A stretch of DNA of 64,000 bases from Flavobacteriales bacterium (GTDB lineage Bacteria > Bacteroidota > Bacteroidia > Flavobacteriales_C > GCA-002722245). The notes under the pieces were generated by a model that was not told where the DNA came from, did no database searches, and was given only the letters and a program-made list of their open reading frames with translations. Where the stretch lies: assembly GCA_002717515.1 (NCBI GenBank), contig PBEC01000018.1, positions 198,630-262,629 of the forward strand, written 5' to 3'. Numbering within the stretch: the first letter of the stretch is position 1; every line of letters begins with the position of its first letter. This document shows, piece after piece, positions 37,354-37,902 of the stretch. The position numbers and the translations under genes are program-made.

Positions 37354-37902
37354 ATGACAAAGGGCAATTTTGAATTTCAGAGTAAGTTAAGCGTTGGTGA
37401 TACAATGGCTGAAAACTTAAAAGAAAATGTTGAAAACTTAAGAAAGGATAGCTTAAGAGAAAAATTTAGTGACTTCGAGAATGTTGAACATCGCTTGGAA
37501 TTTGTTGCTAATGTGCACGGTATTGAGTACATTAATGACTCAAAAGCCACCAATGTAAATTCCACTTGGTATGCTTTGGAAAGAATGAAAAGGCAAACCG
37601 TTTGGATTGTTGGAGGCGTTGATAAAACAATTGATTATTCATCACTTCAAGAATTATCTAAGGAAAAAGTTAGAGCGATTGTGTATATTGGTACCAACAA
37701 ATCTAAAATATTTGAAAACTTTTTGGATAAGGTTGATATGATTGTAGACGCTGGATCAATGGAAGAAGCTGTGCAAATGGCATATTATATAGCAGATAAA
37801 GGAGAAACAGTTTTGTTGTCACCAGCTTCTGCGAGTTTTAATATGTTTGAGAATTTGGAGGAAAGAGGCAATGCCTTTAAACAAGCTGTTAGAAGCTTAT
37901 AA
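37354..37902 (+). CDS. stand-alone MurD C-terminal-domain paralogue (Mur ligase C-terminal domain protein, 182 aa)
   Basis: Residues 45-182 align colinearly, at about 50% identity by eye, with the C-terminal domain of the adjacent MurD. Example: [32 protein letters not shown]...[28 protein letters not shown] versus [32 protein letters not shown]...[28 protein letters not shown]. Own ATG 14 nt after the murD stop. No frameshifts. Confidence 0.7.
   Translation: [182 protein letters not shown]

Follow-up and report, generated by a model that had tools for sequence, protein, structure and literature searches.

A stand-alone gene derived from one domain of the Mur ligase MurD was found in the division and cell wall (dcw) gene cluster of an uncultured marine Flavobacteriales bacterium (assembly GCA_002717515.1, contig PBEC01000018.1, positions 198,630-262,629 of the forward strand); the whole stretch of 64,000 nucleotides (nt) that was analysed is referred to below as the window. 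The gene, an open reading frame (ORF) of 182 amino acids (aa) plus a stop codon designated ORF182, occupies positions 37354..37902 on the + strand, between murD and ftsW. In this gene, a domain that is already known stands alone within the dcw operon, under strong selection and in a form not previously described, and there is very little doubt that the gene is real and functional. The assignment was based on similarity to MurD, a match to the Pfam family PF02875, the ratio of nonsynonymous to synonymous substitution rates (dN/dS) and synteny. The window had been read earlier from its letters alone, and the intact ORF of 182 aa after a full-length murD that was described in this original prediction was confirmed in its coordinates, its ATG start codon and the absence of internal stop codons. 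The murD gene directly upstream (36000..37340, + strand) encodes a three-domain enzyme of 446 aa. The ATG of ORF182 lies 13 nt past the murD TAA stop codon, rather than 14 nt as first stated, and in a frame different from that of murD.

In a BLASTP comparison with the adjacent MurD, ORF182 was aligned without gaps over 167 aa with MurD residues 278-444 (44% identity, 66% positives, E 8e-49). The colinear homology to the MurD C-terminal domain that had been noticed by eye was thus upheld, and all of the shared blocks quoted for it (EHR, FKQ and others) were present in the alignment; the identity was slightly lower than the estimated ~50%, and the aligned region was longer than the estimated ~140 residues. 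The homology was also recovered by profile searches, as had been anticipated. PF02875 (Mur_ligase_C) matched residues 46-158 with 44.8 bits against a gathering cut-off of 28.4, covering profile positions 1-126 of 127, and the NCBIfam murD model TIGR01087 matched with 164.4 bits over profile positions 287-440 of 441. The equivalog cut-off of the latter model (211.95) was not reached because ORF182 consists of a single domain only. No Pfam match to MurD_N or Mur_ligase_M was found in ORF182, which begins at the equivalent of MurD residue ~265. The product of the upstream murD scored 407.6 bits with TIGR01087 (cut-off 212) and matched MurD_N, Mur_ligase_M and Mur_ligase_C (59 bits) in Pfam.

The domain-3 core of ORF182 (residues 46-182; 37489..37899, + strand) was modelled by AlphaFold2 as a Rossmann-like α/β fold with predicted local distance difference test (pLDDT) values >90. 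When the model was compared with known structures by Foldseek, MurD 7u35_A was matched with E 2e-13 and a root-mean-square deviation (rmsd) of 1.6 Å over 141 columns, which correspond to MurD domain 3, so that the predicted domain identity also held for the modelled fold. The top 33 matches in the PDB list were all MurD (rmsd 1.6-3.7 Å, 137-146 columns). By sequence and fold, ORF182 belongs to the Mur ligase C-terminal domain family, and it is not a MurD enzyme, because neither the architecture nor the equivalog cut-off of MurD is attained. Since ORF182 has neither the P-loop central domain nor the UDP-binding N-terminal domain, it is implausible as an autonomous enzyme and would be unable to ligate alone, in agreement with what had been predicted for a C-terminal domain without the catalytic one.

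Proteins of the ORF182 family appear in databases under the names hypothetical, MurD, cyanophycin synthetase and 'glutamate ligase domain-containing protein'. A cyanophycin synthetase was taken to consist of an ATP-grasp domain with Mur-ligase-like central and C domains in about 850-900 aa; ORF182 has 182 aa with one PF02875 domain, and no cyanophycin model was among its NCBIfam matches, so this name is an annotation artefact. A read-through or frameshift fusion of murD and ORF182 was also rejected: the frames differ, a TAA stands between them, and conservation of the N-terminus begins at its own Met. By our own arithmetic, the chance of a 182-codon open frame at the 33% G+C of the window is ~1e-6; the frame is also preserved in the independent loci described below, and a chance origin is excluded.

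The distribution of the gene was studied in public assemblies. At least 22 contigs of ENA, JGI, NCBI and Tara assemblies encode a protein identical to ORF182, and in four of these loci (L001-L004) the gene order was mraY, murD, ORF182, an ORF of 43 aa, ftsW, murG and murC. In a scan of one genome per GTDB species, the gene was detected at 75-98% identity in 18 metagenome-assembled genomes (MAGs; L009-L026), which were labelled as Flavobacteriales or mislabelled as other taxa; in every one of these loci, a full-length murD of 446-451 aa lay directly upstream and ftsW lay downstream. A more distant group (L006-L008; 66% identity, 180 aa) had the same layout, and the same gene was thus found at the same position in L001-L004 and L006-L026. 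Four subgroups were distinguished: A, which is marine and includes the window; B, of 183 aa, from freshwater and groundwater MAGs; C; and D, which comprises L006-L008. True members are marked by the family-specific N-terminus MTKGNFEFQ·KL··GDTMAENLK…, in which the GKHNxYN motif of the MurD central domain is lost. All 22 independent loci of subgroups A-D that were examined, down to 66% identity, contained an intact frame of 180-183 aa with a full-length murD ahead of it, and no frameshift or stop codon was found in the gene among them; the length was held at 180-183 aa from 100% to 59% identity. Two sequences on contigs of 1.2 and 2.2 kb (P0097 and P0104) combine an N-half of the subgroup C stand-alone type with a C-half like real MurD (AIVCLG…SPACASFD). 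Either chimeric metagenome assembly or gene conversion between the paralogue and murD would account for them, and they were left out of the family as chimeric.

Selection on ORF182 was estimated by pairwise Nei-Gojobori dN/dS for pairs with unsaturated dS (0.46-2.0). The values for ORF182 were 0.011-0.028, and those for the same pairs were 0.07-0.13 for murD, 0.02-0.05 for mraY, 0.03-0.06 for ftsW and 0.03-0.09 for murG; in dN, the adjacent murD exceeded ORF182 by a factor of roughly 4-15. Between the window and L009, protein identity was 98% for ORF182, 74% for MurD, 85% for MraY, 88% for FtsW and 84% for MurG, and between the window and L015 the corresponding values were 76, 50, 72, 48 and 59%. 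ORF182 is therefore the slowest-evolving gene of its dcw block, and the purifying selection acting on it is stronger than that on murD, mraY, ftsW or murG. The pooled ratio of nonsynonymous to synonymous differences (pN/pS) was 0.105 in codons 1-17, 0.022 in codons 18-45 and 0.037 in codons 46-182. Considering that selection extended across the whole frame, Met1 is the likely start of ORF182, and codons 18-45, which encode the N-terminal helix, form its most constrained segment. Frameshifted or decayed orthologous loci had been set beforehand as the mark of a pseudogene; the orthologous loci were intact, with the low dN/dS values given above. The view that the gene is an old, diverged paralogue rather than a recent duplication scar also stood, given the 44% identity to MurD and the intact orthologues of 180-183 aa. 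Of the roles that had been suggested, a regulatory module or a decoy, the latter is unlikely in the sense of an arms race because of the extreme conservation.

The conserved residues were then related to the ligand contacts of MurD. Among 21 representatives of subgroups A-D (59-100% identity), 66 of the 182 positions were invariant, including H46-R47 (37489-37494), N61-D62-S63-K64-A65-T66-N67 (motif NDSKATN; 37534-37554), G87-G88-V89-D90-K91 (motif GGVDK; 37612-37626), S156-P157 and A160-S161-F162-N163, both in the SPASASFN segment of the core (residues 156-163; 37819-37842), and R171-G172, all on the + strand. Residue equivalences were taken from the PDB alignment ranges, in which residues 32-180 of the query are paired with residues 287-434 of E. 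coli MurD. By this alignment, R47 corresponds to R302, D62 to D317, K64 to K319, T66 to T321, K91 to K348, S161 to S415, F162 to L416, N163 to D417 and L168 to F422. The D-glutamate (D-Glu) contacts T66, K91, S161 and F162 and the nucleotide contacts R47, D62 and K64 are present and invariant in A-D. R302 and D317 are among the residues that are invariant across all Mur ligases, at the nucleotide site. In E. coli MurD, the carboxylates of D-Glu mimetics form hydrogen bonds with Lys348, Thr321, Ser415 and Phe422; the D-Glu moiety receives a hydrogen bond from Ser415 and has Leu416 no more than about 4 Å away (PMC3527612).

Other positions have changed. When 50 typical Bacteroidota MurDs, 12 cognate MurDs and 36 stand-alone sequences were compared, ten positions that are at least 92% conserved in both MurD sets were found to differ in the stand-alone family. 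The new residue is universal in the stand-alone family at four of them (S→R77, C→Y111, N→K116 and D→N163) and predominant at five (D→E170, 94%; C→S159, 89%; L→M164, 83%; G→T92, 75%; N→V93, 67%), and the tenth, D115, has no single dominant replacement. Because MurD-conserved positions were altered and several of them flank the D-Glu contacts, the sequences point to neofunctionalisation rather than plain redundancy, and ORF182 is more than a domain 3 that has been frozen.

The N-terminal extension of ORF182 (residues 1-45; 37354..37488, + strand) is homologous to the final strand and helices of the central domain of MurD. Its first 27 residues match the final strand and helix there, with charged residues in place of the hydrophobic ones of the buried helix, and residues 28-45 are still close to the typical MurD linker helix. 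In the AlphaFold2 model, residues 14-45 formed one long helix with low pLDDT. Met1 is homologous to a conserved internal Met of Bacteroidota MurD (…F·MSI··LAL·GKHN·YNSMAA…).

The relationship of ORF182 to the neighbouring enzyme was also studied. In a neighbour-joining tree (155 shared columns, 200 bootstraps), the stand-alone sequences of subgroups A-D grouped in a single clade (100%) whose short branch lay among the C-domains of typical Bacteroidota MurDs, and the cognate MurDs of the A-C hosts formed a separate long-branch group. ORF182 was 55-58% identical to typical Flavobacteriales MurD C-domains and 44% identical to its own neighbour, which ranked 79th of 87 MurDs by score against ORF182. 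The lower similarity to the neighbour arises because the latter is the fast-evolving copy. The rate of MurD was compared in 70 loci with complete mraY and murD, and pairs of loci were binned by MraY identity. In the 70-75% bin, mean MurD identity was 70.5 ± 5.9 for pairs without the gene (n=43) versus 50.2 ± 1.9 for pairs of A-C hosts (n=32); in the 85-90% bin, the means were 85.5 versus 71.4, and the difference had the same direction in every bin. This shift suggests that MurD and the short protein are functionally linked. The cognate MurDs share ATNVDS where ATNVNS is otherwise invariant. Transfer of murD from a distant phylum, as a cause of the long branch, was not favoured: identity was 48-53% to MurDs of Flavobacteriales and other Bacteroidota and 29-40% to others. 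Since the catalytic motifs are kept and the best matches are Flavobacteriales and other Bacteroidota MurDs, vertical descent with an increase in rate is more likely than such an acquisition.

ORF182 is followed after 12 nt by an ORF of 43 aa with one predicted transmembrane (TM) helix (37915..38046, + strand; MEEVKPDKSREVKLLVTIIASSVLLFLIFSIVWVIKRVKEGVS), and 4 nt after its end by ftsW (38051..39202, + strand; 383 aa), which was identified by PF01098 (196 bits) and synteny. The 43-aa ORF was called as a gene in L001-L004 and is 59-95% identical across the clade A loci. In clade B, a single-TM ORF of 71-92 aa is present at the same place; none was found after the short gene in L024, in clade D or in type E, which is described below. 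The 43-aa ORF may be part of the same module as ORF182.

ORF182 is not an isolated case: such genes recur, and among them it is the one most similar to MurD. In a metagenome scan, 80 Bacteroidota dcw loci were collected, 73 of which show the murD-ftsW junction. An extra MurD-C-derived gene was present between murD and ftsW in 10 of these 73 junctions, which is not a population frequency since the scan was seeded with MurD-like motifs. In 62 of the 73 junctions, as well as in L027-L029, murD led directly to ftsW, in accordance with the canonical order assumed in the original prediction. Wherever the contig reaches far enough, the downstream neighbour of every stand-alone MurD-C gene is ftsW.

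Several types could be distinguished outside the ORF182 family. Type E (173 aa; L040, 566..1087; L045/L046, 6001..6522; P0121-P0125) lies between full murD and ftsW, has altered contact motifs (EHH, DSKSCD and GGTSR) and keeps a length of 173-176 aa down to 47% identity among P0121-P0125. It formed its own clade (99.5%) apart from A-D, and all stand-alone sequences were placed together in only 0.5% of replicates. In L047 (an NCBI MAG, GCA_031551725.1; 4720..7811) and L048 (an independent Logan assembly; 1..1980), the mraY stop is followed after 27 nt by a C-domain-only gene of 182 aa and then by ftsW. No trace of the murD N or central domains was found anywhere in the dcw cluster of these two loci; therefore, MurD activity there must come from elsewhere, possibly from a split arrangement. 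Another group (L049, L050, 189 aa; L053, 170; L070, 154; L108, 164) scored 135-227 bits with a stand-alone profile and 24-45 bits with Pfam Mur_ligase_C, two of its members falling below the gathering cut-off. A degenerate type of ~141-158 aa was found in the murD-ftsW slot of L060 (6460..6927), L077 (~6449..6875), L083 (6447..6902), L092 (6456..6932) and L120 (705..1181). It had no Pfam match and had lost all ligand motifs (…HGK··GMD·FSWINP…), and it was linked to the stand-alone profile by hhalign with 89.7% probability (E 1.8e-6, 128 columns). In L078, an ORF of 43 aa between murD and ftsW (1464..1595) matched only the C-terminus of the degenerate type (E 3e-7) and may be its decayed remnant in that lineage. 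A further stand-alone type of 162 aa was found in L058, where the contig stops short of ftsW. The murD-ftsW gap of L097 is filled by a 135-aa ORF (3689..4096) with no match to the MurD-C profiles; the slot can thus take up other genes too.

A search of a representative database revealed dozens of different complete proteins of 171-197 aa with the same start position and the same C-terminus and with variably degraded ligand motifs. At the 50% clustering of this database, the ORF182 family is absorbed into MurD clusters, so the search is no measure of family size. Across this diverse stand-alone set, H46, N61, D62, S63, S156, P157, R171, G172 and F175 remained at 90% or above, and K64, T66, K91 and S161 fell below 90%; the D-Glu-specific K64, T66 and K91 were often lost. 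A protein search with the profile of the diverse set, whose consensus resembles typical MurD, gave murD fragments as top matches and no cultured host. The types outside A-D resemble typical MurDs at least as much as they resemble each other (L047, 63% versus 51%; L049, 53% versus 44%; L045, 47% versus 39%), and for this reason several independent births of stand-alone MurD-C genes are favoured by these comparisons. For L049 and L053, their own neighbour MurD was in the top 10 of 87. A single ancient origin followed by divergence is possible; the sequences are short and fast-evolving.

Many database proteins of 182 aa with 60% identity or less to ORF182 do not belong to its family and are pieces of ordinary murD genes; their common length is explained by the internal Met that is conserved in Bacteroidota MurD. 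L005, L039, L042 and L044 were rejected as family members since they are murD 3′ parts split off by frameshifts (in L044 at an A10 run), with murD lying in two or three ORFs; mraY is broken too in L005, and the genes for the penicillin-binding protein and MurE are called as one 1187-aa product in L042. A natural split of murD was rejected for L042 and L044, where blastx homology continues across frames upstream of the ATG. These frameshifts are probably long-read assembly errors, and such loci generate many spurious 182-aa 'Mur_ligase_C-only' database proteins. L040 (15-563), L041 and L043 were excluded as cut by contig ends. The practical lesson is that the family is mis-annotated and that many look-alike entries are fragments of real murD genes.

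As to function, we tentatively propose, while recognising that it may well prove wrong, that ORF182 is a non-catalytic accessory subunit of the MurD step that acts in trans on MurD. Docking of ORF182 to full-length MurD would be mediated by the retained active-site face and the highly constrained helix 18-45 and would take place on the central domain, at or near the position taken by the enzyme's own domain 3 in the closed state; once docked, ORF182 would tune D-Glu addition or the hand-over of the product. Translation of both from the same mRNA would keep its amount in a fixed ratio to that of MurD. The gene may have originated by partial tandem duplication of the murD 3′ end, starting at the conserved internal Met; the short copy would then have taken over the binding role of domain 3 and become frozen, and the full-length MurD, freed of constraint, would have sped up. 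An action in trans on MurD is suggested because the nucleotide-side residues have no obvious use away from the P-loop domain, because the residues that persist even in the degraded types lie on the nucleotide side, and because the rate shift of MurD hints at a functional link.

Several observations weigh against this proposal. MurD evolves about twice as fast in the A-C hosts, but the pairs compared are non-independent and come from one clade, so the acceleration may reflect a single event at the base of A-C. It is as strong in the N and central part of MurD as in the C part, which is not predicted by a simple take-over of domain 3. The cognate MurD retains a complete, canonical domain 3 and all catalytic motifs and has no evident need for a domain supplied in trans. 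Other stand-alone types persist without the ligand contacts, and if one function is shared by all of them, it would not need D-Glu binding. Finally, in L047 and L048, the C-domain gene stands beside ftsW with no murD in the cluster; the neighbour present wherever the contig reaches that far is ftsW, not murD.

This last point leads to the main rival explanation, which we judge somewhat unlikely: the domain-3 fold would serve as a protein-binding module, an adaptor to FtsW (and/or MurG, MraY or the small membrane protein) that links the supply of precursors with polymerisation at the septum and depends little on MurD catalysis. Every stand-alone type lies directly upstream of ftsW where the contig extends that far, the murD-less L047 and L048 included. 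Such adjacency is, however, weak evidence for an adaptor because it is automatic if the gene was born by duplication or truncation of the murD 3′ end. An adaptor would also agree with the independent types that keep the fold and lose the D-Glu contacts, with the single-TM ORF that follows the gene in clades A and B, and with the near-uniform conservation of the surface (98% where FtsW is at 88%), which is typical of proteins with several partners. Non-catalytic precedents of the Mur-ligase fold were present in the fold-search list, namely, the MurT C-domain that docks GatD (6h5e) and the chains 8qma_O and 8r6s_Q. On the other hand, all ligand contacts are invariant in the ORF182 family, which a pure scaffold does not need, and the TM ORF is missing from L024, clade D and type E.

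The invariance of T66, K91, S161 and F162, whose E. coli equivalents contact D-Glu or its mimetics, would be accounted for if ORF182 were a free ligand-binding protein that does not dock to MurD and senses, buffers or carries D-glutamate or UDP-MurNAc-L-Ala-D-Glu, for example by passing the product to MurE or by reporting D-Glu supply. The changes fixed in the family beside these contacts (T92 and V93 after K91; S159, N163 and M164 around S161) suggest a retuned pocket. Nevertheless, this role is improbable: the D-Glu site of MurD is formed between domains 2 and 3 in crystal structures, so that an isolated domain 3 offers half a pocket only, the retained nucleotide-side residues R47, D62 and K64 are left unexplained, and the contacts are lost in other stand-alone types.

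It is still less probable that ORF182 is the C-terminal half of a split ligase, supplying domain 3 in trans to a Mur-ligase-like protein with N and central domains only that is encoded elsewhere in the genome. L047 and L048, in which a C-domain-only gene is found and the murD N and central domains are missing from the cluster, would suit such an arrangement, as would the intact state of all catalytic domain-3 residues in ORF182. However, the murD of the window is complete and canonical (446 aa, Mur_ligase_C 59 bits), no further Mur-like ORF as a partner was found in the 64-kb window, the apparent split murD cases (L005, L039, L042 and L044) are frameshift artefacts, and ten MurD-conserved residues are altered in ORF182. 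A non-functional remnant, that is, a duplication scar or a decaying pseudogene still open by chance, can practically be dismissed: ORF182 did originate as a partial copy of the neighbouring gene, L078 may hold a decayed remnant of a different type, and P0097 and P0104 look like chimeras with murD, but dN/dS is 0.011-0.028 at dS of 0.46-2.0, pN/pS is 0.02-0.10 in all three segments, the length of 180-183 aa is kept down to 59% identity with no frameshift or stop in the A-D loci examined, a chance open frame of this length has a probability of ~1e-6, and ORF182 is the slowest-evolving gene in the block. The probability that remains belongs to mechanisms beyond those listed.

A broader explanation, doubtful in our estimation, would cover all of the stand-alone types. 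Domain 3 of MurD would have a second, non-catalytic role in the wall and division machinery of Bacteroidota, and this role would repeatedly have been made a separate gene upstream of ftsW when murD was partly duplicated or truncated, starting at or close to the internal Met. The products, of at least seven sequence types, would be undescribed pseudoenzyme regulators that couple cytoplasmic precursor synthesis to FtsW, with the family of the window being the youngest-looking, the most constrained and still ligand-competent. The repeated births in the same slot, together with the speed-up of MurD where the gene is present, suggest that the MurD C-terminal domain does more than close over D-glutamate. 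An ordinary Bacteroidota murD might even give rise to an isoform of the C-domain if translation starts internally at the conserved Met.

ORF182 was compared with known systems. In the full-text literature that was searched, in which subscription journals are thinly covered, no description of a stand-alone or truncated MurD or Mur-ligase C-domain gene was found, in line with the earlier remark that no described dcw family of this kind was known to its author. The closest known relative is MurD domain 3 itself (E. coli 1UAG/2UAG/1E0D, P. aeruginosa 7U35), with which ORF182 shares the fold (rmsd 1.6-2.4 Å over about 140 residues), the sequence family (PF02875; TIGR01087 287-440) and the D-Glu and nucleotide contact residues. 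Unlike MurD, ORF182 has no UDP-binding N domain, P-loop domain or GKHNxYN motif, differs at the ten positions and is encoded by a separate gene. Mur-ligase-type folds outside peptidoglycan synthesis are represented among the structural matches by two chains from the plastid-encoded RNA polymerase, 8qma_O and 8r6s_Q (fold search E ~1e-4), which we take to be a MurE-like subunit that is non-catalytic there. In contrast to ORF182, they are eukaryotic, located in the plastid and derived from MurE rather than MurD, and their identity is 11-12%.

The lipid II amidotransferase MurT-GatD, known from S. aureus (6H5E/6GS2) and S. pneumoniae (PMC6085368), is also among the structural matches of ORF182 and provides a case in which a Mur-ligase C-terminal domain is a docking platform for another protein; however, MurT keeps the central ATPase domain and is catalytic, and the similarity is low (~20% identity, TM ~0.48). 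Control of MurD by a small partner protein, as proposed here, is known for MigC of Acinetobacter baumannii, which binds and regulates MurD through an interaction at MurD residues 53-354, equated by the authors with domain 2 (PMC12208494). MigC differs from ORF182 in being a COG0523 GTPase that is unrelated to Mur ligases and encoded outside the dcw cluster. Another old, retained, truncated paralogue of a dcw-cluster gene is provided by the truncated FtsZ paralogues of Hyphomicrobiales, which their authors propose to tune the process of the full-length protein (10.1101/2025.09.29.679267). The differences lie in the protein (a tubulin-like GTPase versus a Mur ligase domain), in the phylum and in the route of action: FtsZ polymerises, which offers an obvious route of interference to a truncated copy, whereas MurD is monomeric and such a route is not obvious.

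Few parts of bacterial physiology are as well studied and as conserved as the Mur ligases and the dcw cluster, which are also antibiotic targets, and the question that ORF182 touches is the coordination of the soluble Mur steps with the membrane steps (MraY, MurG and FtsW). Because it lies in the dcw operon, is more conserved than its essential neighbours and is derived from one MurD domain, ORF182 is a strong candidate for a component, regulatory or scaffolding, that has so far been missing. If MurD domain 3 does have a second role, the stand-alone proteins would be a natural way to separate the catalytic role of MurD from the non-catalytic one.

Finally, signals for transcription and regulatory RNAs were inspected in the window. 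A scan for promoters and terminators with a sigma-70 model, which is not built for Bacteroidota promoters, gave no excess over shuffled sequences, and with no such signal above background, co-transcription of ORF182 within the dcw operon is counted here among the established points. The sole Rfam family match in the window was an S-adenosylmethionine (SAM) riboswitch, RF00162, at 57652..57754 on the - strand (60.3 bits versus a gathering cut-off of 44.4).

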